Made by a program: the position numbers and the translations under genes
Notes under the pieces: generated by a model
The model's input: the letters and a program-made list of their open reading frames with translations, nothing else
Database searches by the model: none
What the model was told of the DNA's origin: nothing
Assembly: GCA_964502365.1 (NCBI GenBank)
Contig: CAZCWQ010000004.1
Location: forward strand, 1 to 59,274
DNA length: 59,274 nucleotides
Direction: 5' to 3'
DNA from: an uncultured Desulfobacterales bacterium
GTDB taxonomy: Bacteria; Desulfobacterota; Desulfobacteria; Desulfobacterales; C00003060
Part shown: piece by piece, positions 1-55,149 of the stretch
How the letters are laid out: each line of letters opens with the position of its first letter
How positions within the stretch are numbered: the first letter of the stretch is position 1

Positions 1-357
<357 letters not shown>

Positions 358-19682: not shown

Positions 19683-19771
19683 CGAAATTCTGCTAATCCG
19701 CTACTACATCTCAGGTGCGAGCCATTCCCCAGACCCTTCACTCTTGTCCTATCAGACAGGGGGTTTTCAGG

Positions 19772-42082: not shown

Positions 42083-44056
42083 CTAAGAAAAGTGTGGAGC
42101 AGGAGTGGGATTCGAGCTGTGTCCTCGGAGTATCCGACTATCTCCCACAGGTACTGTATACTGAATACTATCCAAGTAGTCCAGCAGGGTAGCCGCACGA
42201 CTACAGTTAATTCCGGCCAACTCCTTCAAGTCGACAATAGAAATCTGGCCATGTTTTGCTACATAGCCTCCAACTATGTTCTTGATTCCTTCCAGATTCT
42301 TCCTATGCATATAAGCTCCTTTTTGTAATGGATGCCTTTTCGACAAACGAGGGTTTCTTACGAATATCAGATCCTCAACTTTTGTTAGGAACGAAACGAC
42401 ATTATGTACCTCTCTGGGGTCAGCGTGATTCATGGCTATCAGCAAGGCGTTCATGGTGAAAACTGCATTTTGCTTCTGGGTGGCAAACTCTTCTATGGCA
42501 GAACGAACAATCTCTTGCGTAGGGCTTAAATGTGCTTGAAAGTCAGCCAGCCGAACGATTCCTTTGTTTGTGAAGATAACGTCTTCTTTCAATAGTTCCT
42601 CGATAAGATGCTCAAACACACCAATATCTATGTGCCTGAAATAAGACGACCTCATGTCCTCCTTGGGGATACCCCTTTCAAGAGGATTCGTCTCGTGAAA
42701 TTGTTTGATAACATTTACCATCTGGATCTTCATTGCATCGTATTTTTCTCTATGAAAGAATTGATCATTTCCCAGTGAAACGATTCTGCATTTTTCTTCA
42801 AGACTCGTCAGGATTTTTTCTATTCTCTTCCGACTAACCCCGGTCTTGCTGCTCAAAGTCTTTATGCAGATTGGGCAGCATGTCTCCTCCTTAATTACAT
42901 TTTCTATGACCTCGTCATCTGCGCCATCCATGATAAGTCTCAAATACTGAACATTAGCTCCGCCCCCTCTTCTAAACTTCCTTCTTGCGATCTCGAGAAC
43001 AGTTCCGCCTCCAATAGTGGTCACCGGACTCAAGGTCCTAACAATATATCTATCGAAAGGAAGCGGGGTGAGTCTGTCAAGAAGGCGAAACTGCACAAAG
43101 GCACTTTCTCCCGGACGGACCACATCTTTATCCATAAAAACCATAAGCGCATTCGTTTCACTTGCACCTGTATGAAATCTGATTCTTGTCCGGTTTTGCA
43201 AGGGCTTTGTTTGAGAAGCTAAATAGTAGAATCGAGCATTTAGGAAATGAGAGGACATCAAACTTCCCGGTTCACCGACAACCATTCCCCTACAAATGTC
43301 GCTCAGTCCAACCTGAGGCAGGTTCAGTGCCACCCGCTCGCCAGCATATGCTTCATTAACCTTTTTCCGATAAACCTGGATGGAACGAACTCTGTCCCGT
43401 ATGCTTGAAGGATATATCTCTATCTCATCTTCCTTTCCAATCTTACCTGAAGCCATAGTTCCAGTCACAACAGTTCCAAATCCCCGCATATGAAACACTC
43501 TATCAATGGGAAGACAAAAAACCCCTTCAGGATCCTTTGTCAGACTAGTTTCGCCAAGTGTCTCCAAGGCAGTCTCGATCTCCGCTTTGCCTTCAAGGGT
43601 GCGTACAGAAAAAGGTACGCACGGGGCACCTTCCAAAAAGGAGCCCCTGGTTAAGTCATTGATTTCATCCATGGCCATTGCTATGAGTTCTTGATCTACC
43701 AAATCCACCTTTGAAAGCACTACTAAACCCTGCCTAATACCCAGTAGCTTGAGGATATCAAGATGTTCTCTGGTTTGGGGCATCACACCATCATCAGCAG
43801 CCACCACCAACATTGCCACATCAATCCCGCATATACCGCGAAGCATATTTTTTATGAAACGCTCATGACCCGGCACATCTATAAAGGCCATATTTTGACC
43901 AGAGGGAAGGCTATAAGGAGCAAAGCCCGGCTGTATAGTCAACCCTCTTTGTTTTTCTTCCTGCAAAGAATCTGTGTCTATCCCGGTCAGGGCCTTAACC
44001 AAGGCTGTTTTTCCATGATCAACGTGTCCAGCCGTTCCCACAACCACATGCTTCAA
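42083..44056 (-). CDS. selB: Selenocysteine-specific elongation factor SelB (start placed at TTG 44056)
   Basis: It has GTPase motifs AGHVDHGKT, DVPGHERF and SKVD, EF-Tu-like domains II/III and about 250 aa of C-terminal winged-helix repeats ending in LDYLDSIQYTVPVGDSRILRG. GGAGG (44068-44064) lies 7 nt upstream of the TTG. The 40 codons further upstream in the track ORF are the tRNA gene read as protein. Confidence 0.9.
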   Translation of the reverse strand: MKHVVVGTAGHVDHGKTALVKALTGIDTDSLQEEKQRGLTIQPGFAPYSLPSGQNMAFIDVPGHERFIKNMLRGICGIDVAMLVVAADDGVMPQTREHLDILKLLGIRQGLVVLSKVDLVDQELIAMAMDEINDLTRGSFLEGAPCVPFSVRTLEGKAEIETALETLGETSLTKDPEGVFCLPIDRVFHMRGFGTVVTGTMASGKIGKEDEIEIYPSSIRDRVRSIQVYRKKVNEAYAGERVALNLPQVGLSDICRGMVVGEPGSLMSSHFLNARFYYLASQTKPLQNRTRIRFHTGASETNALMVFMDKDVVRPGESAFVQFRLLDRLTPLPFDRYIVRTLSPVTTIGGGTVLEIARRKFRRGGGANVQYLRLIMDGADDEVIENVIKEETCCPICIKTLSSKTGVSRKRIEKILTSLEEKCRIVSLGNDQFFHREKYDAMKIQMVNVIKQFHETNPLERGIPKEDMRSSYFRHIDIGVFEHLIEELLKEDVIFTNKGIVRLADFQAHLSPTQEIVRSAIEEFATQKQNAVFTMNALLIAMNHADPREVHNVVSFLTKVEDLIFVRNPRLSKRHPLQKGAYMHRKNLEGIKNIVGGYVAKHGQISIVDLKELAGINCSRAATLLDYLDSIQYTVPVGDSRILRGHSSNPTPAPHFS

Positions 44057-44079
44057 AATGCAACCTCCATTGCAGAAGT

Positions 44080-44171
44080 TGGAAGGGGCAAGGGGAATCG
44101 AACCTCCTCCTCGTTTCTTAGACGAGGCCAACGGGTTTGCAGCCCGCGGGGCGCCCAGCACCTTTGCCCCT
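44080..44171 (-). tRNA. tRNASec-like tRNA with Cys anticodon GCA and U73 (selC*/tRNAReC-like)
   Basis: Hand fold of 92 nt. The acceptor stem is 8 bp (AGGGGCAA/TTGCCCCT) and the D arm is GGTG/CGCC. The anticodon stem GCGGG/CCCGT carries the loop CTGCAAA. The variable arm is CCTCGT/ACGAGG (6 bp). The T stem GG(A)GG/CCCC carries the loop TTCGATT. The discriminator is T and CCA is encoded. Confidence 0.85.
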
Positions 44172-44374
44172 AACAAACCATAGATACGAAAATGGATTTT
44201 GTCTCTACACTCTTTTCTCGATTGGTCGATTCGTACAGATTACGCTGCCGGAATACTGTTTGCTAATGAAAGAATCTTATGCGGCAGGTCTTCTTCTCGC
44301 CTCCGGTCTCCCCTTTTCTCGTGTTCGGGATCAGTTGAGCCTATTTTACAGACATTCTATCTGGAGAATATCAA

Positions 44375-44437
44375 TATGTCAAATAGATAATGTCAATCCT
44401 ATTGTCAGGGAAATATAGTGATAGTCTATGTCAAATA
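44375..44437. promoter_or_regulatory. Cluster of TGTCA-containing repeats upstream of the tRNA-selB unit
   Basis: TATGTCAAATA occurs twice (44375-44385 and 44427-44437). AATGTCAAT and ATTGTCAGG lie between them. AATAGATAAT is at 44382-44391. Confidence 0.4.
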
Positions 44438-44536: not shown

Positions 44537-46000
44537 CTACCTGAGTTCGGCCAAGTCCCTGGATATGACAAGCAAAAACCCCAAGGGGAAGACCATCAGG
44601 AAGGGTATAGCTATCCACGTCCCTCTTTCCCAGGCAAAAAACAAGGGCAGGAGGGTGTATAAGAACAGGGCTGCATTCATGATGATGTACGACCAAGCCC
44701 GCTGACGGTAGAGATAAGCCAACTTAGGCAAAGGAGCGCCGCCGTGAACACCAAATTTCGCAGTGCGCCTAAAAATACCACCTTTACATATCATTCCTTG
44801 AACAACCGCCAGTCCCAGGCTGGGTGCCAGACCTATGGTCAACATTGGAAGGAGAAGTAGTGGAAGAAAAGGATTTCCATCCTTTTGCTTAGCAGCGTAA
44901 AGACAAAAGTAAAGCATTACAGCCCCGCTTCCAAAAAGAAGAAGGGGAAAATCAGACCGAAACAGTTGATATGGCCCTATTCCAATTCTAACATGAATCG
45001 CAGGATAAAGGGTAAGGGTCACGATGGCACCCAGCAGCCAGCCAAAGTTAGCCAATAGATGTACAGAGGCCTCAACTTTCAGCCGAAGTGGCACAGAACG
45101 GGACAGCAGGAGAGAAGGAAGGATTTTTTTTGCTGTTTGGATCGACCCTTTTGCCCAGCGCTGTTGTTGGCTTCGAAATGCGCTTAGTGTTACGGGAAGC
45201 TCGGAAGGAACGACCAGGTCGTCAACATATACGAACCGCCAACCTGCAAGTTGAGCCCGGTAGCTCAAATCCAGATCTTCCGTTACGGTGTCGGGTTTCC
45301 AGCCTCCAGCTGACAGGATGGCTTCCCGTCGCCAAATACCCGCGGTACCATTGAAGTTAAAGAAGAGTCCTCGCGTGAATCGGACCTGATGTTCGATCCT
45401 GAAATGCTGACCTAGAAGCAAGGATTGAACACCTGTAAGCCAAGAACGTTCCTTATTCAAGAAACCCCAACGGGCTTGGACCATACCAACTCTTGAATCT
45501 GAAAAGTAGGGTACGGTCCGAACCAAAAAGTCACGAGGAGGAACAAAATCAGCATCAAAAATAGCTATGAATTGCCCAGTTGCGTCGGCAAGGCCTTGGT
45601 CCAAAGCTCCAGCCTTGAAACCGTCACGGCTCTCACGACGAAATACCTTGATGTCAATCCCGTTCCCTGACCAATGTGCAACTCGCTCATCCACAATCGT
45701 CCTCGTATCGTCTGTAGAGTCATCTAATACTTGTATTTCTAACCTCCTGCGGGGCCAATCTAGTCTTGCCGCAGCGTCAATGAGACGTCCTGCCACAAAG
45801 CGTTCATTGAAAAGCGGCAACTGGACAGTTACACTACATGGCCTTGAGGCGGAAGGGCCAGCTTTTTCTGCTACGCTAGGATCGAGACGTTGTGAGCACC
45901 AACACGCAAAAAACCACAGTCTGTGCAAACCGTATAGAGCAAGACCTCCCAAGGCAAAAAGATAAACAGTTATCCAAAATTGTTCAATGCAAGAACTCAT
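44537..46000 (-). CDS. Membrane-embedded processive family 2 glycosyltransferase (cellulose-synthase-like superfamily)
   Basis: 487-aa ORF with N-terminal TM helices, DDSTDDT, DADF, a QQQRWAKG (QxxRW) motif and a multi-TM C-terminus. Confidence 0.85.
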   Translation of the reverse strand: MSSCIEQFWITVYLFALGGLALYGLHRLWFFACWCSQRLDPSVAEKAGPSASRPCSVTVQLPLFNERFVAGRLIDAAARLDWPRRRLEIQVLDDSTDDTRTIVDERVAHWSGNGIDIKVFRRESRDGFKAGALDQGLADATGQFIAIFDADFVPPRDFLVRTVPYFSDSRVGMVQARWGFLNKERSWLTGVQSLLLGQHFRIEHQVRFTRGLFFNFNGTAGIWRREAILSAGGWKPDTVTEDLDLSYRAQLAGWRFVYVDDLVVPSELPVTLSAFRSQQQRWAKGSIQTAKKILPSLLLSRSVPLRLKVEASVHLLANFGWLLGAIVTLTLYPAIHVRIGIGPYQLFRSDFPLLLFGSGAVMLYFCLYAAKQKDGNPFLPLLLLPMLTIGLAPSLGLAVVQGMICKGGIFRRTAKFGVHGGAPLPKLAYLYRQRAWSYIIMNAALFLYTLLPLFFAWERGTWIAIPFLMVFPLGFLLVISRDLAELR

Positions 46001-46191
46001 GGATACGCCACTTCGTTGGAACTGGTATCGTCCCCGCTCAAACTGTTTCTTATTTCAATTACGCTTCACAAGGAAAACCACTGCAGCCCACCGCTAGAAG
46101 CGCCTATTTCTCATTTTGTATGACATTTTATAGAAGCACTCTTTCAGAAGCAAATTGATTTTTTGAATAGAGCAGTTCAAAATGTATTGAG

Positions 46192-46216
46192 ATTATCTAT
46201 TTGCGTAATAGATAAT
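46192..46216. promoter_or_regulatory. Perfect 10-bp-arm palindrome ATTATCTATT-n5-AATAGATAAT (candidate operator)
   Basis: Read directly from the sequence. It lies in the divergent intergenic region between the GT2 gene (-) and the barrel-rhodanese genes (+). Confidence 0.5.
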
Positions 46217-46231
46217 ATTAGTGTAAAAAGG

Positions 46232-46251
46232 TATGTAATGTTAATTACATA
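46232..46251. promoter_or_regulatory. Second palindrome TATGTAAT-n4-ATTACATA
   Basis: Perfect 8-bp arms, about 45 nt upstream of the ATG at 46296. Confidence 0.4.
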
Positions 46252-46295
46252 ACAGAAGCATTAGGTGCAAAGAAGCTAAGGGGAAAGGAGTTTCT

Positions 46296-47135
46296 ATGAA
46301 AAGGAGTGTTATCATTACTGTGTTTACATCTTTAATTGTGTTGGCCTTGACAAATCAAAGTTTTGCTGGCGCTTGGACGCGAGAAAAGGGCAGTTCTTAT
46401 AACCGGCTTGCTTTCAACTATTATTACTCCAATAAGAATTACATCGAGAACAGTGACAGGGTAGCCTTCCCTAATGATGGCTGGTTTCAAGATGTGAATC
46501 TCAATTACTATGTGGAATATGGACTAGTCGACCGTACTACACTTATTGGATCCTTTTACTACAAGTGGATCAGAAAGCAAGACAGTACAATTAGAATGAA
46601 GACTTATGGAGTCGGGGATGTCGAACTGGCTGCCAAATACAGAATGCTTGATTCCTCTTTCGGTATTCTTTCAGCCCAAGGATTGATCAAGATTCCGGAA
46701 CTCTATGATGAGGACGACGCTCTTCCCCTTGGCAACGGGCAGTATGATTTCGAAGTGAAACTTCTATACGGACGTTCTCTGTGGCCCCACGTCCCTGGCT
46801 ACTGCAATTTCGAGGTCGGCTACCGCCTGAGAGCGGAAGAACCTGCCGATGAGTTCAGATTCGTTGCTGAATTGGGCCTCAACTTTGGACAGCATTTTTA
46901 CGGCCGCGTCAAGGCAGATGGCATTCTGGGCGCTGATAACGGCGAAACAATTGTTGATATTAGTGGCAATCCCTCAATTACCAATGACTTTGATCTGATA
47001 AAACTCGATATGGCGTTTGGATATAAGATCACGAAAAGTTGGGCAGTGGAAGCAGCATGTACCCCTTCGATCTATGGCGAGAACACAGCAGCCGGTACGA
47101 CTTACACGCTGGCTCTGGTGATGGAGACCTGGTAG
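46296..47135 (+). CDS. Putative outer-membrane beta-barrel protein
   Basis: 279-aa ORF with a signal peptide (…LALTNQSFA/GAW), an alternating amphipathic pattern rich in Tyr/Gly and a terminal aromatic residue (…METW). Confidence 0.65.
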   Translation: MKRSVIITVFTSLIVLALTNQSFAGAWTREKGSSYNRLAFNYYYSNKNYIENSDRVAFPNDGWFQDVNLNYYVEYGLVDRTTLIGSFYYKWIRKQDSTIRMKTYGVGDVELAAKYRMLDSSFGILSAQGLIKIPELYDEDDALPLGNGQYDFEVKLLYGRSLWPHVPGYCNFEVGYRLRAEEPADEFRFVAELGLNFGQHFYGRVKADGILGADNGETIVDISGNPSITNDFDLIKLDMAFGYKITKSWAVEAACTPSIYGENTAAGTTYTLALVMETW

Positions 47136-47292
47136 GCGCGTCCGTTCGCCTAGGGCTGATCGCCAAGATTGGGGTATTCGAAGGTCAATTCTGAAAGGGA
47201 AATCTTAACGAAAGGGGGTGTATCGATACCTTAGCACATGCTCTCATAGGCAAATGCCTTTGAGAATCTCTTCAATAATAGGAGGCGACAAA

Positions 47293-49389
47293 ATGAGGAG
47301 GAGAAACTATTACTTATTAACTTTCGTCGTGTTAATTGTTTTAGCTGGTCTCTGCCTAAACGGTTGCGGCGAGTCGGTGGACTTGGCGGAGCAAGGATCA
47401 ATATCAGGTTTGTCTGAAGAAACTCCGTCAGGTTCTGTCTTGGCTTTTGGGACAGGTGATTACCCAAACTCTGAACTTCTTGTGTCTGGAGAGGAGATTG
47501 AAGACAACCTGTCCAAGGTGCGGAAAGCGAGCCTTCAGGCCAGCCAGGCAGAGACTGCCGAATCTTATGACTTCGTCATCATTGACGCAAGAGGCGAACC
47601 ACTGCCCGACCCACAGGACCCCGATTATGACCAGCACCCGTACGTGCAAGGGCACATTCCGGGTGCTATTAGCCTAGCTTGGCAGCAGTTTGGCGCACCA
47701 AACTTGAACCCGGTGTCAGAACTTGAAGATGTCTTGACCAACACAGGTATCACCAGAGACATGACCATCGTCATTTATGATGATACGACAGCATCATGGG
47801 GTGCCGCCGGTCGCGTCTTTTGGACTCTGGAATACTTGGGGTGTGAAGATGTGCATCTTTTGCAAGGCGGCTGGGACAAATGGGTGGCCGACGGCCGGCT
47901 TACTGAAACCAGGGCCAACACTTTGCCGGATGCTCCAGCGTTTGTCGCCCAAGTCAACAATGACATCATGGCCACAAAAGAACACGTAAGTGACCGGCTA
48001 GAGGATGACGACTTCGTGATCATCGACTCCCGGACCGACGAGGAATACAACGGCTGGACGCTCTACGGTGAAGCCCGGGGCGGACACGTTTCGGGGGCCG
48101 TGCAAATCCCTTATGAGTGGTTTTTTTACGAAGACAAGACCATATTGAGCAGCGATGATCTGCAAGACCTGTTTGAGTCCAGGGGTATCACTCTGGACAA
48201 GGAGGTGAGTTCTTACTGCACGGCTGGTATCCGCAGCGGATTCGTGTACTTTGCACTCCGCCTAATGGGGTATCCGAACTGCTCGAACTACGATGGGTCC
48301 ATGTATGACTGGGCTGTTGCTTCCGTGGCTGATCCCGATGTCTACCCCATGGAACAAATGGCCAATTACCAGAAGCTTGTACATCCAGGATGGGTGAAAA
48401 ACCAGCTTATCGACGGGAACAACGCTGGCAAACCCTATGTCATCGTTGAAACGTCGTGGGGCCCTGCCGGCGACTATTATAATGACGGTCACATTCCAAA
48501 AGCAGTACACGTGAACACGGATGAAATCGAATATGACTGTTTCAACCCCCGCAATGACTGGCCTGTAGACCCCGGAGACCCTCCTTGCTGGGATCGCAGC
48601 ACCACTGAGGAGGAGGATGCCGCTAAAGGTCTAGGGCCAGATGACGCGCTCCCTAAAAACTGGTGGAATCTCTACCCAGACCAATATCTACTGCCTGCCA
48701 TCGCCTATATGGGGATTGATAAGGACACGACGGTCGTTGTGTACAGCAAAAGTTTCTCGGCCGCAGCACGGATCGTGTGGACGTTGATGTATGCGGGCGT
48801 TGAGGATGTGCGCCTGCTTAACGGCGGCAAGGACACCTGGGTAGCAGCCGGCTACACATTGGAAACCACAGCCAATGATCGCACCCCCGTGTCTGAGTTT
48901 GACCCCGAAGACCCTGGCGCAACATCAGCCCTTCACCCGGAGTACCTTGTGGATACGGCCTATGTCCTCCAGGCAACGGCCGATCCAAACAACGTCGATC
49001 CTCCTGCCGTGATTGCCGAGATTCGCAGGTGGGAGGAGTTCATCGGTGCCTCCCGTCCCTATTCCTATATCCCCGCTGATGGCCGTATTGCAGGTGCCGT
49101 ATGGGGCCACAATACAGATGCCTTTGTCGACGCTGACGGGACTCTTCGAACCTACACGGAGGTTGAGAAATTGTGGTCCGAAAATGGCATTACCTCCGAT
49201 ATGTCGGCGAGCTTTTACTGAGGGACAGGATGGAGGTCAAGTTTGGCCTGGTTTTTGGCCCACCTGATGGGCTGGGACAATATCACCAATTATGATGGTT
49301 CATGGTATCAATGGACTGAGGGGCTGGATCCGCTGGATCCCGGCTATCCCCCTAACCCCGTGGTGGATGAGGAGCCAGATCTGCCCTAG
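47293..49389 (+). CDS. Four-domain YnjE-like rhodanese lipoprotein with in-frame TGA (49219-49221) at the last catalytic Cys position; candidate selenoprotein
   Basis: The ATG at 47293 follows GGAGG, and a lipobox is present (LCLNGC). The domains run inactive/active/inactive/active, with active loops YCTAGIRS and FY-TGA-GTGWRSS. Reading through the TGA gives 55 further in-frame codons (GTGWRSSLAWFLAHLMGWDNITNYDGSWYQW...) that complete the rhodanese fold. Confidence 0.75.
49243..49272 (+). promoter_or_regulatory. Candidate SECIS-type hairpin(s) downstream of the TGA
   Basis: There are two mutually exclusive small hairpins 22-50 nt after the TGA. One is TTGGCC(tggttttt)GGCCCA and the other is GCCCA(cctga)TGGGC. 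Neither was evaluated with a model. Confidence 0.3.
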
Positions 49390-49694
49390 AAGTTAGGAGA
49401 GCGTGACTTGTTGTGCTATCAAGAAGCATCTTTGAACAATTAGTCAGAGAGGTATTGGGACCTAGGGCAAAACAACAGCAATACATGAGGCAAAAGACGG
49501 GAAGCCATGGGAGGCGTTTCAGGGTCCCCTCGCCTTCCTAGTGTATACATCCTATGGGATTCAGTTCGTTCAAGTTGGCGCACGAGTGGTCATTTTGTTT
49601 CGATTCGACGTGCCCAGCAGAGGGTTCATTATACTTCCGTAGGTTCGTGAACCCCACTGCCAGTTATGAAGCCTAGCTTCGAAGATGAGACACC

Positions 49695-51545
49695 ATGTGT
49701 CTTTACAAAACCATAGCCCCAGACTCGGTAAGAAAAGACTTGGCCCATGACGGCGTTGATTCATTACCTAGGACAGAGGCAAAAAGCATCTTTGAAAAAT
49801 GCATCAACTGTGAGCTCTGCCAAAAGGAGTGCCAACTCCTCAGAAAGTACGGCAAGCCCAAGGATATTGCAGAATCCTATAACCCTTCTGATAATGACCA
49901 TCAGGCTGTGCCCTTTGAGTGCAGCCTTTGCCAGCTTTGTGCTGCGGTGTGTCCCGTGGATGTCAATCCTGGCAACATGTTCCTGGAGATGCGCCGGGGG
50001 TTGGTAAACCAGAGGAATGGGGACTATCCAGAATATTCCACTATCCTCGGGTACGAACGGCGGGGAACGTCCCGTCGCTATACCTACTATGCTATTCCTG
50101 CTGGTTGTGACACCATCTTTTTTCCAGGTTGTACCCTCCTGGGCACCAGGCCAGACAAGACATCAGAACTCTATGATCACATGAAAAAGGACATTCCCGC
50201 ACTGGGGATCGTCCTCGACTGCTGCACAAAGCCCTCACATGACCTTGGTCGACAAGATTATTTCAATGCTATGTTTGATGAAATGAAAGGTTTTCTTATA
50301 AGAAACGGCGTTTCAAGAGTTCTCGTTGCATGTCCCGACTGTTATGATGTCTTCAGAAAGTACGGCGAGGAGCTCTCTGTCAGAACAGTCTATGAGTTCA
50401 TGGTAGAAAACGGTTTGCCGAACAAAGAAGAAGTGAATGGAACTGTGACCATTCACGATCCATGTGTTATCAGGTGGGAAGAGGCCATTCATTCTGCTGT
50501 CAGAGATCTGTGTACAAGAAAGGGACTAACCATCGAAGAGATGCCCCATCATGGGAAAACAACAATGTGCTGTGGGGAAGGGGGCGCGGTCGGTTGCGTG
50601 TCACCCCATCTTGCAAACAAATGGGGAGCTCTCATCAAGAAGGAAGCTAATGGCAGGAGGATTGTTACTTATTGTGCTGGGTGTGCAAATTTGTTAGATG
50701 CCATAACACCCACCAGCCATGTCCTGGATGTCTTATTTGAGCCGGAAACCACACTGTCTGGCAAAGCCAAGGTTTCCAAGTCGCCGGTTACCTACCTGAA
50801 CCGGCTAAGGCTGAAGAAGCGGCTCAAGAATACGGTCAATGCTTCAGTAACACGGGAGAGGACATTCACTGGGGGGGAGGAAAAGAAAAAAGGAACAGTG
50901 ATTAAGCGCGTCTTTTTTCTTTTGGCTATCCTGACTGCGATTCTGGCAGTGCGGTTCACAGGTGCAGCACATTACCTGCAACAAGAGACGCTCAGGCAGT
51001 GGATTCAGGGTTATGGAGCACTGGCTCCGGTTGTTTACATGCTCATATACACGGTTGCACCGGCCCTCTTTTTGCCTGCCCTTCCCATCACCATAGTGGG
51101 CGGAGTCCTCTTTGGCCCGTTCTGGGGCGTGGTTTACACTATCACCAGTGCTACCTCAGGTGCTTGTGTGGCCTTCATCATATCACGTTACATAGCCAGG
51201 GAATGGATCGAGGAAAAGCTGAAAAGTCCGAAATGGCATCAGCTTGACGAGGGGGTGCAACGGCATGGATGGAAGGTTGTTGCCTTCACCCGTCTGATAC
51301 CGTTGTTTCCTTTTAACCTGCTTAATTACGCCTTCGGCCTTACGAAAATAAGATTTATCCACTATGCCATAACGACATTCATCTGCATGCTCCCAGCCTG
51401 CATTGCATATGTTGTCTTTTCAAGCTCGCTGCTCGATGTGATAAAAGGAAGGATATCTCCCGCATTTATTGCCGGGATGGGTCTCATTGTGCTGGTCTCG
51501 TCAGTGCCCATTTTTTACAGACGCTACAAGGCAAAAAAAGGATGA
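49695..51545 (+). CDS. Fusion protein: 2x[4Fe-4S] ferredoxin motifs plus two CCG Cys-rich domains (HdrD/GlpC/LldE-like) plus a C-terminal TVP38/DedA (SNARE-associated) membrane domain
   Basis: The ferredoxin motifs are CINCELCQKEC and CSLCQLCAAVCP. The CCG-type motifs are ...PGCTL...DCCTKP... and HDPCV...MCCGEGG...YCAGC. From about aa 400 there are TM helices and the TVP38 signatures GVLFGPFWG and FTRLIPLFPFNLLNYAFG. Confidence 0.8.
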   Translation: MCLYKTIAPDSVRKDLAHDGVDSLPRTEAKSIFEKCINCELCQKECQLLRKYGKPKDIAESYNPSDNDHQAVPFECSLCQLCAAVCPVDVNPGNMFLEMRRGLVNQRNGDYPEYSTILGYERRGTSRRYTYYAIPAGCDTIFFPGCTLLGTRPDKTSELYDHMKKDIPALGIVLDCCTKPSHDLGRQDYFNAMFDEMKGFLIRNGVSRVLVACPDCYDVFRKYGEELSVRTVYEFMVENGLPNKEEVNGTVTIHDPCVIRWEEAIHSAVRDLCTRKGLTIEEMPHHGKTTMCCGEGGAVGCVSPHLANKWGALIKKEANGRRIVTYCAGCANLLDAITPTSHVLDVLFEPETTLSGKAKVSKSPVTYLNRLRLKKRLKNTVNASVTRERTFTGGEEKKKGTVIKRVFFLLAILTAILAVRFTGAAHYLQQETLRQWIQGYGALAPVVYMLIYTVAPALFLPALPITIVGGVLFGPFWGVVYTITSATSGACVAFIISRYIAREWIEEKLKSPKWHQLDEGVQRHGWKVVAFTRLIPLFPFNLLNYAFGLTKIRFIHYAITTFICMLPACIAYVVFSSSLLDVIKGRISPAFIAGMGLIVLVSSVPIFYRRYKAKKG

Positions 51546-51640
51546 CAGATCTTTTGTGAGATTCAACCGAGCGATTATAATACAGCCGTCGGTGCACCAG
51601 CCCCGGTAGTTTCGAATCTTGGCTTTGCAGATCACATGCC

Positions 51641-52363
51641 ATGTATTTAGGAAAAACCATAGCCCTGCTTCTTCCGGCAAGAAACGAAGCGGCTGCCTTA
51701 CCTGGCGTCCTTAAGATGGTTCCTCAACAGGTGGATCGAGTCCTAGTGCTTGATAACGCTTCCATAGATTCGACTGCACAGGTAGCAAAGGAACACGGAG
51801 CAGAGGTTGTCATAGAGAATAAGCCGGGATATGGGCGAGCCTGTCTGCGAGGGTTAAAGTTTCTCGAAACCAATCCTCCTGACATTGTAGCCTTTGCGGA
51901 TGCAGACGGCAGTGACAATCTTTCTTTCCTGCCTGAGATGCTCAAGCCCCTTGTTAAAGGAGACTCTGATCTGGCATTAGCTTGCCGGATCCCTGATAGT
52001 CACGACGCCATGAGTGCTCAGCAACGCCTGGGCAACTGGCTGGCCACTCAGCTCATACGCCTTTTCTGGCGCCATGTGTACAATGACCTTGGACCCATGC
52101 GGGCCATTGCATGGAAGGCCCTTTCTGAGCTCCATATGAGGGATCCGAACTACGGGTGGACTGTGGAAATGCAGATAAGAGCCCTCAAGAAGCGGTTGCG
52201 GGTAAGGGAATACCCAGTCTTGTACTACAAAAGGGCCGCAGGCCGTTCGAAAGTCAGCGGTTCCTTGGTGGGCAGCCTTCGGGCTGGAATAAAGATACTG
52301 TGGATCATCGGGCGGGAAGCCATTTTGAGAAAATCCAGCTGGCAACAGTGTGATGTCTCTTAA
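51641..52363 (+). CDS. Family 2 glycosyltransferase (polyprenyl-phosphate glycosyltransferase-like)
   Basis: 240-aa ORF with LLPARNE, LDNASIDST and ADADGSD motifs. Confidence 0.85.
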   Translation: MYLGKTIALLLPARNEAAALPGVLKMVPQQVDRVLVLDNASIDSTAQVAKEHGAEVVIENKPGYGRACLRGLKFLETNPPDIVAFADADGSDNLSFLPEMLKPLVKGDSDLALACRIPDSHDAMSAQQRLGNWLATQLIRLFWRHVYNDLGPMRAIAWKALSELHMRDPNYGWTVEMQIRALKKRLRVREYPVLYYKRAAGRSKVSGSLVGSLRAGIKILWIIGREAILRKSSWQQCDVS

Positions 52364-52368
52364 GTCTT

Positions 52369-53850
52369 TCATCCGGTCGTCAATAGACTATTTTGCCGTG
52401 CCACTGACCTGTAGATTGTAATAAGAACGAAGGCTGCTACCGGTCCTATCCACGTCATGAATGCAGTTACGTCACCTTCAACCCATTGTCCACCCAAGGC
52501 ATAGGGTATAAGGACACGATATCCCAGGAAGACTGACCAAGTAAATATTAATCCTGCTGGCCCTGCAACAAAAGGGAGAAAACAGACCAGATATAATGCG
52601 TACCAAGGATGAAGGGTGGGCGTGAAAAGCAAGAACGTTATCATGATATTGTATAGCACTGAAAAAAGCATTGAAATTATTTGCTTGCTGGCACACTGGG
52701 TGTCGTATTCCAATTTCTTAAGGTAAAGCTTAACATATAGAAAAATTGTCGCTGTGAGAAAGGCGGAGCCCAGAGCCAACCTAGCAGCATTTCCGGAGAC
52801 CATTAAACGCCGCAAACTTCGATAGGCAAAGCTGCCAAATTCCCAGTGCTTGGCGTATTCTCTCAGAGTGCCGAGGGCATTTAGGACATCGGGAAAGAAA
52901 GGGAGTGTCAACAATAAGAATCCAATCATGATGCCTATCATTGCAAATGTCAGGCATCGTCTAGGCAATAGGATCAGACATCCTGGTATGAAAATGAGGG
53001 CGAAGAGTTTAACGAAACCTGCACAGGCAAGAGCCAAACCTGCAAACAAAAATAAATGGATTCTAGTTGATAACAAATGACCGTGGACTAAAGAAACTAA
53101 GCCATGGGAGTTATTAGTAGACCGCAAAGCAGCTATCAAGGTCAAGAAGCCAAGAAGAAAAAACAGTAACCCGGCCCCGTCTACATGACCTGAAGCGGCA
53201 ATTTCAAGGACCGGCAGGGGGTGCCATGCATAGAGGGCGGCCCGCCAAGCTGGGAGTTCCAGAGTAGAGAGCAGCCGCAGGATTACAGCGCATGTTGCCA
53301 GGTCCATAGCCACCAGCATGGATTTAAGGCCCAGTACGCTGCTGCCTAATGCGGATCCTGCCATGAATATGAGTTGAGCCGCAGGAGGATAAATGGTGAC
53401 TAGGTCTGGGTGGTTAACTTGTTCCAACAAATTGACTAGGATGCCACCCAGAGGTTGGCTGTCTGCGGGAGGAAGAGAATAAGGATTGTGCCCTGACAGG
53501 GTCTGAAGTCCGTCCCATAAGTATCGATAGATATCATCTGAGAGTTCAGGTGATCGAAACCAAAAAATGAGGCGAAGGCATACAGCCACAAGCATGATCA
53601 TACAAGGCGTCCATTTGATTGCTTGCTTTTCTCCCAAATACAGAGCAATAGCGAGAAGAACAGTCACGTTAGCCGTGACACCAGTGAGAGTGGGAACAGC
53701 GAGCCGCAAATCTGCCTTAATAGCTAATAAACCATAGGAGGCCACGATGAGAAAAGGTATTCCCCACGTGAGCCAGAAGTTCGTCCTCATCTTATCGAGT
53801 ATTTTAGTACCGTCCATCTTGATGCCGTGCGTTTTTCCGGCAGAATGCAA
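52369..53850 (-). CDS. Polytopic GT-C-type glycosyltransferase (DUF2029/GT87-like); the true start may be an internal Met (about 53790)
   Basis: 493-aa ORF with more than 10 TM segments. The first loop has an Asp-containing motif (SDDIYRYLWDG) typical of lipid-linked-sugar-dependent GT-C enzymes. Confidence 0.65.
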   Translation of the reverse strand: MHSAGKTHGIKMDGTKILDKMRTNFWLTWGIPFLIVASYGLLAIKADLRLAVPTLTGVTANVTVLLAIALYLGEKQAIKWTPCMIMLVAVCLRLIFWFRSPELSDDIYRYLWDGLQTLSGHNPYSLPPADSQPLGGILVNLLEQVNHPDLVTIYPPAAQLIFMAGSALGSSVLGLKSMLVAMDLATCAVILRLLSTLELPAWRAALYAWHPLPVLEIAASGHVDGAGLLFFLLGFLTLIAALRSTNNSHGLVSLVHGHLLSTRIHLFLFAGLALACAGFVKLFALIFIPGCLILLPRRCLTFAMIGIMIGFLLLTLPFFPDVLNALGTLREYAKHWEFGSFAYRSLRRLMVSGNAARLALGSAFLTATIFLYVKLYLKKLEYDTQCASKQIISMLFSVLYNIMITFLLFTPTLHPWYALYLVCFLPFVAGPAGLIFTWSVFLGYRVLIPYALGGQWVEGDVTAFMTWIGPVAAFVLITIYRSVARQNSLLTTG

Positions 53851-54643
53851 TGGGGCTGCAACTTATGACCTTGCTCTTATCGAACCAGCGACTCTCAACC
53901 GCAACCTTTCAGATTGGATCGTCCTCGATGCTCGTCCGAAAACCGAATGGCGAACTTCACATATACATGGTGCCATGTCGTTTTCCTGGGAAGACTATAC
54001 TTCAACGGACAAGAAAAATATACCTTACAGGATCTGGTCGCCAGAAAAGATAGCTGCGGCCCTGGGAAACATGGGAATTAGTGAAAGCAGTCGAATCGTA
54101 GTGTATGGAGATGCGGACACAAGCTGGGGGGGAGAAGGATGGGTGTGTTGGGTATTCACATGGCTGGGGCATCAGGGACCCATCCGTGTGCTCGCCGGGG
54201 GGATCCAGTCCTGGAAAAAGCATGGCTTTCCCATGGGGCCACATGTTAGACAGACGGCAGGTGTACCAGTGGAGTACAGATTCAAAGTGAGGCCACAAGT
54301 CAATATCACAACAAATGAGATTGAGCAGGAAAAATCGAACATCGTACTGGTTGACACGCGTTCAACCCTTGAGTGGATCAAAGGACATCTCCCAGGCGCG
54401 GTTCATGTAAAGTGGAACCGATTCTACTCGGGAAAGGATCGACGTCCCCTGAGCTCCAATGAGATGAGAGACCTTTTGCACCGGCATAAGGTTGGCCAAC
54501 AGAAACCAGTAGTTTATTACTGCACGGGCGGGATTCGATCGGCATATGCTTGGCTGGTGCATACGTTATCCGGAATGCCACCAGCACGCAACTACGAGGG
54601 GGGAACGGAAGCCTGGAAGCGTCTTTCTTCCGATTCCGGTTAG
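53747..54643 (+). CDS. Two-domain rhodanese sulfurtransferase (SseA/TST-like)
   Basis: 298-aa ORF. The N-terminal domain is inactive (YGDADTSWG) and the C-terminal active loop is YCTGGIRS. A hydrophobic N-terminus suggests export. The start is uncertain because it overlaps the divergent gene. Confidence 0.8.
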   Translation: MRKGIPHVSQKFVLILSSILVPSILMPCVFPAECNGAATYDLALIEPATLNRNLSDWIVLDARPKTEWRTSHIHGAMSFSWEDYTSTDKKNIPYRIWSPEKIAAALGNMGISESSRIVVYGDADTSWGGEGWVCWVFTWLGHQGPIRVLAGGIQSWKKHGFPMGPHVRQTAGVPVEYRFKVRPQVNITTNEIEQEKSNIVLVDTRSTLEWIKGHLPGAVHVKWNRFYSGKDRRPLSSNEMRDLLHRHKVGQQKPVVYYCTGGIRSAYAWLVHTLSGMPPARNYEGGTEAWKRLSSDSG

Positions 54644-54707
54644 CTTCTTATTTTCCCATGAACCCTTCATTATTATATTACTGTTGCTTTAGTCACTTTT
54701 AACACTC

Positions 54708-54736
54708 TTGACTTGGCCTATTCAGCACCCTATATT
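54708..54736 (+). promoter_or_regulatory. Near-consensus sigma70-type promoter TTGACT-17 nt-TATATT
   Basis: TTGACT is at 54708-54713 and TATATT at 54731-54736. The site is about 55 nt upstream of the ATG at 54791. Confidence 0.55.
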
Positions 54737-54790
54737 GCGTTTCACAAAGTGCGTGAAGAACTTTTAGACTTTGGGAAAGGAGGTGTTAAT

Positions 54791-55051
54791 ATGGAAGGAA
54801 AACATGAACACAGGCACCTGCATTCTCACGAGCACACCCATCTTCACACCCATGAGCACCGGCACGGGGATGAGGTCCACAACCACGAACACTCACACGC
54901 GCACACCCACGAACACGAGCACGAACATTCCCACGAGCATTCTCATCCTGGAGACAAGCATGTGCATAACCACGATCACAGCGGAGACCACGGCACCCAC
55001 GACCATGTCCATCCAGGTCATGAAGCTGAAGTGCACGATCACACGCACTGA
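54791..55051 (+). CDS. Histidine-rich small protein (putative metal-binding or metal-storage protein)
   Basis: 86 aa, roughly 40 percent His by eye, with HEH/HxH repeats (HEHTHLHTHEHRH...HTHEHEHEHSHEHSH). AAGGAGG lies 7 nt upstream of the ATG. Confidence 0.75.
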   Translation: MEGKHEHRHLHSHEHTHLHTHEHRHGDEVHNHEHSHAHTHEHEHEHSHEHSHPGDKHVHNHDHSGDHGTHDHVHPGHEAEVHDHTH

Positions 55052-55073
55052 GTCTCTGCACAACTGGCTTTCA

Positions 55074-55110
55074 AGAAAGGGCGAACCCACAAGGTTCACC
55101 CTTTCTGCTT
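55074..55110 (+). terminator. Strong hairpin after the His-rich gene (terminator or attenuator)
   Basis: AGAAAGGGCGAACC cacaa GGTTCACCCTTTCT pairs at 13 of 14 positions. GCTT follows it. Confidence 0.5.
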
Positions 55111-55149
55111 GTGGAATACTTATTCCATTCGTAACATGGAGTGGCTAAT

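Follow-up and report, generated by a model that had tools for sequence, protein, structure and literature searches.

Cysteine tRNAs built like selenocysteine tRNAs and encoded with a SelB paralogue, the selC* tRNACys and selB* module, have been described by Mukai et al. 2017 and, as later papers cite it, by Vargas-Rodriguez et al. 2018 (RNA Biol 15:471). The selC*-selB* arrangement is reported for Syntrophobacterales and Desulfobacterales by Mukai et al. 2017 (PMC5389517). The designation tRNAReC and the recoding of UGA to cysteine with SelB are attributed to Vargas-Rodriguez et al. 2018 in PMC13582414 and PMC8762117, and the former also cites that study for SECIS-dependent UGA recoding by both anticodon types; an earlier note on this DNA, which had drawn on the selC*/tRNAReC literature, was therefore correct on this point. 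Members of the class are recognised by U73 together with the anticodon GCA, by their long variable arm, and by an acceptor stem of 8 bp combined with a T stem of 4 bp from which A51a bulges out (PMC5389517, PMC7609411); a further trait is that their genome also carries the whole canonical Sec system (selA, selB, selC and selD). The selC* tRNA of Desulfomonile tiedjei is cysteinylated in vitro by its own CysRS, and the selC*(UCA) of Desulfococcus biacutus suppresses UGA with Cys, for which the 8-bp acceptor stem is required (PMC5389517). Charging, binding by SelB or SelB* and insertion of Cys at a SECIS-flagged UGA have been reported for the homologues of D. tiedjei, D. biacutus and Desulfotomaculum nigrificans (PMC5389517; in part as related in PMC13582414). 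In Mukai et al., the first acceptor pair is A1:U72 only in tRNAs that have a UCA anticodon and whose selB* is followed by the gene of a dedicated CysRS* (PMC5389517), and A1:U72 tRNAs may be poorly charged by ordinary CysRS (PMC5389517, PMC7609411).

Judged by its sequence features, the locus analysed here, in a 59-kb stretch of DNA (the window), is a new member of this known class and not a new class. With the modules of D. tiedjei, D. biacutus and D. nigrificans it shares U73, GCA, the long variable arm, a fold that can be drawn with 8 acceptor pairs and 4 T-stem pairs around a bulged A (A51a), a selB* gene directly downstream and delta-proteobacterial (Thermodesulfobacteriota-type) relatives. 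New here are a nearby rhodanese gene with a catalytic-site TGA and a SECIS-like hairpin, the substitutions R30S and H229Y in SelB*, whose SECIS-binding helix has also diverged, and the pairing of A1:U72 with GCA without an adjacent cysS*, whereas the published A1:U72 group (Desulfobacterales type) has UCA and a cysS* after selB*. The selC*/tRNAReC reading of the earlier note thus stands as far as the class features go, but was over-rated, as the class was already known.

A tRNA gene of selenocysteine-tRNA shape with cysteine marks

The single tRNA that ARAGORN finds in the window is called tRNA-Cys with anticodon GCA (Table 1), and its best Rfam clan member is tRNA-Sec (RF01852; 50.0 bits, E = 4e-7, against a gathering score of 47 bits), which agrees with the tRNASec shape that the earlier note saw in this minus-strand RNA alongside GCA and U73. 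The anticodon (44140-44138) lies in the loop CUGCAAA, the discriminator is a U (U73; 44083, tRNA position 89) and CCA is encoded in the gene (44082-44080); U73 and the GCA anticodon are the two main CysRS identity elements. Eight Watson-Crick pairs can be drawn in the acceptor stem (1-8 with 81-88), the first being A1:U72. They are accompanied by a 5-bp D stem with a 3-nt loop, an anticodon stem of 6 bp in which one U is bulged, a variable arm of 19 nt (6-bp stem, 7-nt loop) and a T arm GG-A-GG / CCCC with four G-C pairs and A67 bulged. At 92 nt and with its 19-nt variable arm, the RNA does not match the canonical class I tRNACys form (7/5 cloverleaf, short variable loop, ~74 nt). Altogether, these data confirm a genuine tRNA gene with the shape of a selenocysteine tRNA and the marks of a cysteine tRNA. 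As the sequence is G+C-rich, we take the shuffle z-scores of the tRNA (z = -0.8, folding no better than shuffled sequence) and of the post-UGA hairpin described below (z = -0.6 to +0.5, without significance) as uninformative and not as support.

Table 1. Features of the locus, numbered along the window.
Feature	Position	Strand	Details and basis
selC*/tRNAReC-type tRNACys gene	44080..44171	-	92 nt; ARAGORN, Rfam, 11 homologues and pair counts
selB* (SelB paralogue)	42083..44056	-	657 aa, TTG start; TIGR00475, Pfam, signature columns
GGAGG ribosome-binding site of selB*	44064..44068	-	7 nt before the TTG start; read from sequence
Leader, promoter-like site to tRNA	44172..44353	-	Upstream-region alignment; ~130 nt longer than in related loci
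Sigma-70-like promoter, TTGACA-17 nt-TAGAAT	44354..44382	-	11/12 consensus positions; ~180 nt upstream of tRNA
GT2 glycosyltransferase	44537..46000	-	487 aa; Pfam and NCBIfam; directly upstream of the selC*-selB* promoter
Secreted protein, unknown family	46296..47135	+	279 aa; no family match in Pfam/NCBIfam
Multi-rhodanese lipoprotein gene, candidate target	47293..49388	+	Lipobox LNGC; in-frame TGA 49219-49221; translation
SECIS-like hairpin just after the TGA	49222..49261	+	Folding; core stem 49234-49239 with 49244-49249
Fer4-dicluster/CCG and VTT (DedA-type) membrane domain fusion	49695..51545	+	Pfam Fer4_8, Fer4_17, CCG, VTT_dom; downstream of rhodanese gene

The fold proposed in the earlier note, with an 8-bp acceptor and a 4-bp T stem, is favoured over a 7/5 fold, although the sequence alone is compatible with both. 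The 8/4 fold can be drawn with standard pairs throughout and comes out more stable, at -36.2 kcal/mol, than a 7/5 fold of the mismatch type (-33.5 kcal/mol). Across an alignment of 12 sequences (the window and 11 homologues) it pairs 97.7% of cells, against 94.8% in the 7/5 fold and 49-62% when the partners are slid, and its eighth acceptor pair changes on both sides, from A:U to G:C, in three sequences. Against it, this eighth pair is A·C in 2/12 sequences, the G65:Y81 pair of the alternative 7/5 fold is kept in 12/12, and minimum-energy folding without constraints yields a 7/5 variant; experimental support for the 8-bp acceptor stem comes from a selC* homologue only (PMC5389517).

Several features link the gene to canonical tRNASec (RF01852): the favoured 8-bp acceptor stem, the long variable arm, the 6-bp anticodon stem, the anticodon loop CU-NCA-AA, the best clan match and the linkage to a SelB-family gene. 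It departs from canonical tRNASec in its GCA and U73 (UCA and G73 in all aligned canonical genes), in its D arm (5-bp stem and 3-nt loop, against 6 bp and 4 nt), in its length of 92 nt (95-98 nt) and in an acceptor-T helix of at most 12 pairs (8/4) plus a bulge, in place of 13 bp (8/5). Contrary to the earlier note, 8/4 is not the characteristic architecture of bacterial tRNASec: the canonical form is 8/5, with a 13-bp acceptor-T helix, and 8/4 is a minor form (PMC4605307, PMC7609411). The near-identity to E. coli selC claimed there for the anticodon and variable region is overstated: in a MAFFT alignment with K-12 selC the similarity is confined to the anticodon arm (~15/21 positions), the variable arm differs in sequence, and BLASTN of the tRNA against 5,426 E. 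coli genomes gave no selC alignment. On the tRNA-Sec model the selC*-type tRNAs score 48.8-57.6 bits and canonical tRNASec genes 66-84 bits, so that the former make up a distinct tRNASec-like class; with 50 bits, the window tRNA lies above the threshold and in the low group. A 12-bp acceptor-T branch, a lengthened acceptor and a long variable arm are also found in allo-tRNAs (8/4 or 9/3, serine identity; Mukai et al. 2017), which are recovered as tRNASec false positives. These differ by a tRNASec-like D arm, many anticodons, predicted Ser charging and no selB linkage, whereas the type found in the window has a fixed GCA, U73 and strict selB* synteny.

The 11 homologues, all independently assembled, have a mean identity of 94%. 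U73 is present in 12/12 aligned sequences; 11 of them carry the anticodon GCA, and the twelfth (locus L164) carries UCA. The first anticodon base, at 44140 in the window, is G in 10/11 homologues, which rules out the sequencing error that the earlier note had named as a possible refutation. Five stem pairs show two-sided changes, the anticodon stem is paired in 100% and the variable arm in 91.7% of cells, and the anticodon loop, the T loop UUCGAUU and the discriminator are conserved, as is CCA in 10/12. Since the SelB* proteins encoded alongside are only 39-67% identical, this conservation shows strong purifying selection on the tRNA. Furthermore, a UCA member inside one tRNA family points to UGA as the codon read.

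Thirteen distinct loci of the SelB* sub-clade, to which the identity range above refers, were examined, and in each of them the tRNA lies directly 5' of selB*; in the window, 23 nt separate it from the selB* start codon. No tRNA-Cys was found near canonical selB in ~155 such loci. This synteny, absent from the earlier note, was found here in related loci chosen by exact-protein look-ups. A metagenome scan with the SelB* query was dominated by the generic SelB motif HERFIKNM, with an orthologue in 1/80 loci (L081), and the best SelB* match among species representatives is 46% identical.

SelB*, its leader and the search for partner genes

The selB* ORF is intact and encodes the full SelB architecture of an EF-Tu-like GTPase followed by winged-helix domains (Pfam GTP_EFTU, D2, Beta-barrel_SelB, SelB-wing_2 and SelB-wing_3), with 322 bits on TIGR00475 selB against a cutoff of 242. 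Residue 1 of A. aeolicus SelB falls on its start at 44056. A 697-aa ORF running from 44176 through the tRNA was rejected as an artefact, as the SelB alignment begins at the TTG at 44056, which is preceded by GGAGG. In the aminoacyl pocket, the invariant residues D185, R186 and R241 are retained, and R30S and H229Y mark the lost positions; free L-cysteine binds this pocket in A. aeolicus SelB (PMC4605307). UPGMA of 117 SelB sequences, a distance-based clustering and not a full phylogeny, gave a 59-member paralogue clade split from canonical SelB at ~60% distance. Twelve near-perfect signature columns distinguish this clade, and the window SelB* has the paralogue state at 12/12 and groups with the tRNA-Cys-linked clade, not with canonical SelB, from which its SECIS-binding helix has diverged. 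Thermodesulfobacteriota/Deltaproteobacteria entries occur in both clades, which fits paralogy.

The -35 element of the promoter sits within ATTATCTATTTGAC, a motif that recurs ahead of the module in five selC*-selB* loci whose upstream regions do not otherwise align. No terminator was found between tRNA and selB*, and the leader has no Rfam match at gathering score. The tRNA and selB* are probably transcribed together from this one promoter, ~180 nt upstream of the tRNA. The next gene after selB* is a convergent NMN-adenylyltransferase-like ORF. Canonical selA, selB, selC and selD were not found within the 59-kb window, and neither was cysS or cysS* (no KMSKS motif, no CysRS family hit); downstream of selB* in three related loci (L161, L164, L170), cysS* was likewise not found.

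The neighbours of selC*-selB* are recurrently of the sulfur/selenium-relay type (TusA-DsrE, rhodanese, Se_S_carrier, a cysteine-desulfurase-like aminotransferase), and related loci carry many genes for selenium handling (SelD with UGA, YedE-type Sulf_transp, TusA, Se_S_carrier). The TusA-DsrE, TusA and small rhodanese genes of related loci were ruled out as UGA targets, as they have ordinary Cys codons.

A multi-rhodanese gene as candidate target

The adjacent candidate targets that the earlier note had announced are borne out by a multi-rhodanese lipoprotein gene 5 kb from the tRNA, presently annotated as a truncated 642-aa product, in which the in-frame TGA replaces the catalytic Cys of the last domain (FY-TGA-GTGWR). 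We searched for such candidates by a homology-backed junction scan in which antisense 'shadow' hits of conserved genes were discarded by strand, a naive scan being mostly noise. At the junction, Cys aligns in 13/13 ORFs from other loci. Among 120 listed database entries of the family, 117 are uncut at the TGA site and three, the window product included, end at '...FY'; for the residue at the UGA position the C-terminal ends were used, since internal rhodanese domains confound a whole-protein table. The three UGA forms are independent, and all continue in frame through the conserved domain.

A hairpin follows the TGA in 3/3 UGA forms at fixed spacing, with changes on both stem sides in one of them (L174). 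Counting from the U of UGA, the G and U of its apical loop AGUU are nucleotides 23 and 24; in the closest Cys-form rhodanese gene, U24 is lost. Cys-form genes can form part of the hairpin too, as their RNA is constrained by the encoded protein. Rfam SECIS families gave no match in the rhodanese region, a negative that carries no weight, as a strong SelD hairpin in a related locus (L162) is likewise without a match. The arrangement resembles SECIS recoding of E. coli fdhF, where the corresponding loop bases are numbered G23/U24: in both, an in-frame UGA occupies a catalytic Cys/Sec site, a hairpin begins a few nt downstream and has an apical-loop G and U ~23-24 nt from the U of UGA, and Cys-containing homologues exist. 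It differs from fdhF-type recoding in that the predicted residue is Cys, not Sec, the factor is a paralogue with a different RNA-binding helix, and the hairpin lacks an Rfam SECIS family match.

The glycosyltransferase is part of the conserved rhodanese cluster, as judged from the 494-aa GT2 of the L174 cluster, which has 3 of the same 4 Pfam GT2 families. Each of the three clusters has a 279-aa gene beside the multi-rhodanese gene; it lies upstream of it in the window and L176/L177, and downstream in L174. The window copy encodes the secreted protein, possibly an outer-membrane beta-barrel, and the counterparts are matched to it by size, position and absence of a Pfam hit. The Fer4-dicluster/CCG-VTT architecture recurs in L174; in the window, the product partially matches NCBIfam NF045663 'diclust_near_Sec' (228 bits vs a cutoff of 530).

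Linkage between module and UGA gene is limited: a homology-supported recoded TGA lies within 10 kb in only 2/13 selC*-selB* loci, and no selB* was found near the other two UGA-rhodanese loci. From the evidence above we infer that the multi-rhodanese gene is the best local candidate target, and a plausible one. Should a canonical Sec system be present in the genome as well, the rhodanese UGA could simply be a selenocysteine codon.

Cysteine at UGA: a proposed mechanism, alternatives and meaning

We consider it likely that the locus is a two-gene recoding module, in which the tRNACys and its dedicated SelB* read UGA as cysteine. Cysteine charging, SelB* binding and UGA reading by the GCA anticodon are here inferred by analogy with the described homologues. 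The tRNA would be cut out of the shared selB* transcript and charged with cysteine by cysteinyl-tRNA synthetase, because it carries U73 and the GCA anticodon. Owing to its tRNASec-like shape (acceptor stem of 8 bp, long variable arm), EF-Tu would reject it and SelB*-GTP would bind it instead. The C-terminal winged-helix domains would tether SelB* to the SECIS-like hairpin just after an in-frame UGA, and SelB* would deliver Cys-tRNA so that this UGA is read as cysteine and not as stop or selenocysteine. Against this mechanism stands the combination of A1:U72 with GCA and no cysS* in the window, with which charging by an ordinary CysRS may be poor. Moreover, GCA is cognate to UGC/UGU, not UGA, and as the long variable arm is an identity element for SerRS, some serylation is possible.

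We hold it improbable that the gene is a true tRNASec with a variant anticodon, charged by SerRS, converted to Sec by SelA and delivered by SelB* at UGA or at SECIS-flagged UGC/UGU. Such a tRNA would agree with the score above the tRNA-Sec gathering threshold, the long variable arm and 8-bp acceptor stem, the retention in SelB* of the selenol-binding residues D185, R186 and R241, the selenium-handling genes in related loci, and the existence of tRNASec species with sense anticodons (Mukai 2016, as noted in PMC7609411). However, U73 is found in 12/12 sequences, whereas all canonical tRNASec examined have G73, the determinant for SerRS (PMC7609411); the D arm, with 5 bp and a loop of 3-4 nt, departs from the 6 bp and 4 nt read by SelA (PMC7609411); the tRNA-Sec model scores are 10-35 bits under those of canonical genes; and a selC* homologue is cysteinylated in vitro (PMC5389517).

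The strict synteny with the SelB paralogue in 13/13 loci and the replacement of GCA by UCA in L164 make it quite improbable that we deal with an odd cysteine isoacceptor that serves ordinary UGC/UGU via EF-Tu or SelB* without stop-codon recoding. GCA is indeed cognate to UGY, ARAGORN calls a tRNA-Cys, and U73 with GCA makes the RNA a CysRS substrate in principle; yet normal Cys decoding needs no class-II shape, and the 8-bp acceptor stem is an EF-Tu antideterminant and a SelB determinant (PMC7609411).

Since the tRNA is located towards the 5' end of the selB* transcript, is not separated from selB* by a terminator and is preceded by a conserved promoter motif, one may also think of a tRNA-like element acting outside translation, either as a cis-acting or titrating regulator of selB* or, in SelB*-bound form, with Cys-tRNA as a protected aminoacyl or sulfur/selenium carrier. 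The recurrent sulfur/selenium-relay neighbours would fit a carrier or regulator of this kind, and balancing of tRNASec and selB expression via gene overlap has been discussed (PMC8124441). We regard this as very improbable, given that the whole molecule is selected as a tRNA (anticodon loop, T loop, discriminator, CCA in 10/12) and that homologues work in E. coli translation (PMC5389517). Finally, a decaying, functionless duplicate of selC and selB, for which the marginal Rfam score (50 vs 47) and the folding z of -0.8 might speak, appears effectively refuted by the conservation pattern, that is, a 94% identical tRNA beside 39-67% identical SelB*, two-sided stem changes, an intact 657-aa selB* with all domains and a conserved promoter motif.

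Within 7 kb, the window thus holds a tRNA, a dedicated SelB* and a natural UGA gene with a SECIS-like hairpin, a compact and testable set for which the Cys-form orthologues of the rhodanese gene are close enough to act as controls. Orthogonal Cys-inserting tRNA/SelB pairs would be useful for genetic-code engineering. As UGA-interrupted genes in genomes that bear the UGA-to-cysteine module may encode Cys, selenoproteome predictions can be wrong.

A 'backup' role for such tRNAs has already been suggested, and we know of no dedicated target set or SelB*-specific SECIS in the literature. The functional partitioning of tRNASec and tRNAReC 'remains unclear' according to PMC13582414. We put forward, as a doubtful possibility, that UGA is recoded through a second, separate channel, made up of tRNA and SelB* and independent of selenium, which puts Cys into sulfur/selenium-trafficking proteins at their catalytic UGA. 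With its diverged SECIS-binding helix and, in this sub-lineage, its R30S/H229Y pocket, SelB* might recognise its own subset of hairpins, and the targets of the channel would be the periplasmic multi-rhodanese lipoprotein here and, in a related locus, SelD itself. If this is true, proteins acting before Sec synthesis could be made even without selenium, which would solve the start-up problem of a selenium pathway that itself depends on selenoproteins.

A cysteine tRNA with the shape of tRNASec

In the 59-kb window ARAGORN finds just one tRNA, a tRNA-Cys with anticodon GCA, for which the top tRNA-clan model in Rfam is tRNA-Sec (RF01852; 50.0 bits, E = 4e-7, gathering score 47 bits). By direct reading, its 92-nt RNA, AGGGGCAAAGGUGCUGGGCGCCCCGCGGGCUGCAAACCCGUUGGCCUCGUCUAAGAAACGAGGAGGAGGUUCGAUUCCCCUUGCCCCUUCCA, can be drawn with eight Watson-Crick acceptor pairs (1–8 with 81–88), a D stem of 5 bp closing a 3-nt loop, an anticodon stem of 6 bp that has one bulged U and the loop CUGCAAA, a 6-bp variable arm whose loop has 7 nt, a T arm of four G-C pairs (GG-A-GG/CCCC, A67 bulged), and, at the 3' end, discriminator U followed by an encoded CCA. 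The earlier note's tRNASec-shaped tRNA with GCA and U73 is thus borne out by both programs and by direct reading. The note had named a sequencing error at 44140, the first anticodon base, as a possible objection; 10 of 11 independently assembled homologues share this G, and it is not an error.

In the 8/4 structure (acceptor-stem/T-stem base pairs), standard pairs occupy 97.7% of alignment cells, versus 49–62% when partners are slid and 94.8% for a mismatch-type 7/5 fold, and both-sided changes occur at five pairs (1:72, 3:70, 8:81, the anticodon-loop-closing pair and one variable-arm pair); the cloverleaf is well supported. The 8/4 fold is also more stable than the 7/5 alternative (-36.2 vs -33.5 kcal/mol), which keeps G65:Y81 in 12/12 sequences but leaves an invariant A·C mismatch within the T stem. 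Without constraints, the minimum-energy fold is a further 7/5 variant, via A64:U81, a pair that is impossible in the five sequences with C at position 81. At the eighth acceptor pair, three sequences have G:C in place of A:U through changes on both sides, probably in one event since the three are close relatives, and two other sequences have A·C. We regard 8/4 as favoured for the window tRNA, not proven.

The earlier note's description of 8/4 as typical of bacterial tRNASec does not hold: in the canonical 8/5 form the acceptor-T helix has 13 bp, and 8/4 is a minor form (PMC4605307; PMC7609411; PMC5389517). Likewise, the near base-for-base match of the anticodon and variable region to E. coli selC shrinks, on direct alignment with the K-12 gene, to the anticodon arm (~15/21 positions), the variable-arm sequence being different, and BLASTN against 5,426 E. 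coli genomes gave no selC alignment to the window tRNA. Canonical tRNASec genes further differ in their G73 end, 5-bp T stem and length of 95–98 nt.

tRNASec-like tRNAs with U73 and GCA or UCA were described by Mukai et al. 2017, as was a second selB copy (selB*) directly downstream of selC* in Syntrophobacterales and Desulfobacterales; the D. tiedjei tRNA is cysteinylated in vitro, and that of D. biacutus suppresses UGA with Cys (PMC5389517). The name tRNAReC goes back to Vargas-Rodriguez et al. 2018, as cited in PMC13582414 and PMC7609411, and these two papers also relate that the D. nigrificans tRNAReC is charged by CysRS, is recognised by SelB and recodes UGA to Cys in a SECIS-dependent manner. 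A 2026 study screens genomes for the class routinely (PMC13582414). The window module belongs almost certainly to this selC* tRNACys/tRNAReC class, as the earlier note had proposed, and its U73, GCA anticodon, long variable arm and downstream selB* match the published description (PMC5389517); the module type is already known, and a specialist would recognise it at once.

In the data of Mukai et al., A1:U72 is found only where the anticodon is UCA and a dedicated CysRS* that lacks the anticodon domain is encoded after selB* (PMC5389517). In contrast, the window tRNA combines A1:U72 with GCA, and neither cysS nor cysS* was found adjacent to selB* or anywhere in the window; no adjacent cysS* was found either in the related loci L164 and L170 (A1:U72) and L161 (G1·U72). 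The family's one UCA tRNA, in L164, precedes a SelB* that has Thr at position 30; lacking an adjacent cysS*, this locus departs from the published UCA/A1:U72/cysS* pattern.

Coordinates of features in the window and in related loci (L numbers, from other genomes)
Feature	Locus	Position (strand)	Remarks
16S rRNA, 5' end	window	1-357 (-)	cut by window edge
6S RNA (SsrS)	window	3788-3973 (-)	RF00013, 102.7 bits; between RNase Y and glmU-like genes
GlmU-like protein gene	window	4680-5405 (-)	241 aa; N-terminal uridyltransferase half, without acetyltransferase half
Activase ORF	window	19715-24010 (+)	1431 aa; two acyl-CoA dehydratase activase (BcrAD/BadFG-type) modules
selB*	window	42083-44056 (-)	TTG start at 44056
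selC* tRNA	window	44080-44171 (-)	
Motif ATTATCTATTTGAC	window	44370-44400 (-)	overlaps -35 element
Rhodanese cluster	window	44537-56169	
Rhodanese cluster	L174	4584-21698	
Rhodanese cluster	L176	1144-8972	
Multi-rhodanese lipoprotein gene	window	47293-49388 (+)	TGA at 49219-49221
SelD gene	L162	16033-17124 (+)	TGA at 16111-16113
UCA tRNA	L164	2945-3037 (+)	U73, A1:U72
PhosphMutase/Metalloenzyme-family gene	L163	7719-9023	~430-440 aa
PhosphMutase/Metalloenzyme-family gene	L170	6422-7717	~430-440 aa
PhosphMutase/Metalloenzyme-family gene	L174	2874-4196	~430-440 aa
Fluoride riboswitch	L172	19490-19554 (-)	60 bits

The SelB paralogue and its family

selB* starts 23 nt downstream of the tRNA in the same orientation, and a GGAGG site precedes its TTG by 7 nt. 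The 657-aa product matches TIGR00475 selB at 322 bits (cutoff 242) and contains, according to Pfam, GTP_EFTU, domain 2, the SelB beta-barrel and SelB winged-helix domains 2 and 3. A 697-aa ORF running through the tRNA was discarded as an artefact, since A. aeolicus SelB aligns from the first residue of the shorter, 657-aa form. A promoter-like site (TTGACA-17-TAGAAT, 11/12 matches) lies ~180 nt upstream of the tRNA, and no terminator was found between tRNA and selB*. The motif ATTATCTATTTGAC is also present upstream of the L161, L162, L169 and L170 tRNAs; that these five upstream regions, otherwise unalignable, share it suggests a common regulator. LysR-type genes adjoin several of the motif-bearing loci, but not the window's.

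The window's genome is absent among 185,579 species representatives, where the best SelB relative is 46% identical. Among 5.8 billion proteins, relatives are graded at 67%, ~55%, ~50% and 42–46% identity, followed by the mass of canonical SelBs near 40%. Clustering of 117 full-length SelBs yielded a 59-member group (the window's subclade, P0001–P0017, plus P0018–P0061 and P0065), split from canonical SelB at ~60% distance; twelve alignment columns tell the two apart with hardly an exception, and in the window protein all twelve show the paralogue state. Since both groups hold Thermodesulfobacteriota/Deltaproteobacteria entries, the split looks like paralogy, not taxon divergence. A tRNA of ~92 nt lies directly upstream of selB in 13/13 distinct paralogue-group loci (window, L001, L002, L081, L161–L165 and L169–L172, leaving out L166–L168 and L173 as duplicates of L165 and L172), while tRNA-Cys was found at none of ~155 canonical selB loci, many of which have tRNA-Sec(UCA) nearby.

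The pocket residues contacting the selenol or thiol have been defined in A. aeolicus SelB (PMC4605307). All 117 sequences have Asp185, Arg186 and Arg241 (window numbering). In the window SelB*, Ser replaces switch-I Arg30 (Arg in 104/117), Ser or Thr at this position being confined to P0001, P0002, P0011, P0013–P0017 and three others, and Tyr replaces His229 (His in 111/117). In the last winged-helix domain, the SECIS-binding recognition helix has the sequence SRKYAIPLLEYFD in canonical SelB and NCSRAATLLDYLD in the window protein; with its helix so altered, SelB* may prefer a different hairpin than canonical SelB.

A rhodanese gene with an in-frame TGA

Among in-frame TGAs in real genes of the window, just one is convincing. 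It interrupts a 698-aa lipoprotein (lipobox LNGC) with several rhodanese domains, which gene callers cut to 642 aa, and falls on the catalytic Cys of the last rhodanese domain (FY-TGA-GTGWR). Cys is aligned across the junction in all 13 ORFs from other loci, and 117 of the 120 listed family entries, the closest homologues (70–74% identity) included, are uncut there, most running on to a PDLP-type tail that resembles the window's read-through end. The other three, P0173, P0205 and the product of the window gene itself, break off precisely at '...FY', and the UGA forms (3/3) stay in frame through GT(G/A)WR...NYDGSWY.W up to a normal stop. Because nearly all homologues carry Cys there, most entries run past the site and the UGA forms stay in frame, this TGA is, judged by comparison, a recoding site and not decay, and the rhodanese is probably a selenoprotein or a Cys-recoded protein.

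In each of the three UGA forms a hairpin lies at a constant distance from the UGA, with stem ~16–21 paired to 26–31 (numbered from the U of UGA) and apical loop A22-G23-U24-N. In L174 the stem is maintained by changes on both sides, and the closest Cys form has AGC where the UGA forms carry AGU, losing U24; in the E. coli fdhF SECIS, G23 and U24 are the critical loop bases. Part of the hairpin is dictated by the protein sequence, its energy is no better than that of shuffled sequence, and the Rfam SECIS families match neither this hairpin nor the strong one at the L162 SelD gene. From its sequence, the rhodanese hairpin would be described as SECIS-like.

The gene belongs to a cluster conserved in the window, L174 and L176/L177. 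Besides one to three multi-rhodanese genes, the cluster encodes a 279-aa secreted protein, a Fer4-CCG(-VTT/DedA) protein and a GT2 glycosyltransferase; in the window and L174 it also holds a second rhodanese and a radical-SAM gene. A large GT2 (487 or 494 aa) is part of the cluster as well and lies, in the window, directly upstream of the selC*-selB* promoter. Weak NCBIfam matches in the cluster, to the ExtH selenite/tellurite-reduction rhodanese and to 'diclust_near_Sec', hint at chalcogen handling. A PhosphMutase/Metalloenzyme-family gene adjoins selB* or the rhodanese cluster on three unrelated contigs.

Genomic setting and proposed function

In other genomes, selC*-selB* lies amid sulfur/selenium-trafficking genes: TusA-DsrE fusion, YedE-type Sulf_transp, TusA, Se_S_carrier (PF11823), Carb_kinase, a cysteine-desulfurase-like aminotransferase, HGD-D with activase and, in L162, SelD with a UGA at the catalytic position. 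The relay neighbours, such as TusA-DsrE, use ordinary Cys codons. A homology-supported recoded TGA occurs within 10 kb in only 2 of the 13 selC*-selB* loci, the window (rhodanese) and L162 (SelD), and neither of the two further loci with a UGA-rhodanese has selB* within 10 kb; here the tie to a neighbouring UGA gene is suggestive, but it does not hold generally. The L162 SelD (selenophosphate synthetase), in a Nitrospirota MAG, has its TGA near the N terminus at the catalytic position, with a strong hairpin (-26.7 kcal/mol) after it, and stands 4 kb downstream of selC*-selB*, after TusA, YedE-type Sulf_transp, TusA, Se_S_carrier and Carb_kinase genes.

The rest of the window is ordinary chromosomal housekeeping (tyrS, RNase Y, ATP synthase operon, rodA-mrdA-mreDCB, RNase E/G, purB, secDF, dprA, topA); selA, selD and a second selB were not found in the window. 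Its 16S rRNA features and the source names of the closest protein matches are consistent with a delta-proteobacterial (Thermodesulfobacteriota) organism. The window has an ORF with two activase modules, and HGD-D dehydratase and activase genes recur beside selC*-selB* in other genomes. The fluoride riboswitch belongs to the Syntrophorhabdaceae locus with the most distant selC*-selB* pair.

Altogether, we consider the module likely to be a Cys-inserting UGA-recoding system, with the neighbouring rhodanese as best local candidate target. By analogy with its homologues, the tRNA would be processed out of the selC*-selB* transcript, charged with Cys by CysRS and carried by SelB*, and Cys would be inserted at SECIS-flagged UGA codons. 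A variant tRNA that inserts selenocysteine is unlikely: on the Rfam tRNA-Sec model the selC*-type tRNAs form a distinct class (48.8–57.6 bits vs 66–84 bits for seven canonical tRNASec genes). The anticodon is GCA in 11 of the 12 aligned tRNAs and UCA in L164; since this family member carries UCA, the sequences support UGA, not UGC or UGU, as the codon read, and an ordinary reader of Cys codons appears more doubtful still. U73 is invariant (12/12) and CCA is encoded in 10/12, and we give a role outside translation even less credence. The twelve tRNAs have a mean column identity of 94%, their SelBs being only 39–67% identical to the window's, and a decaying duplicate is scarcely credible.

This locus compactly unites the tRNA, its dedicated factor and a natural candidate target with UGA, for which Cys forms can serve as controls, and this makes the physiological role somewhat easier to test.
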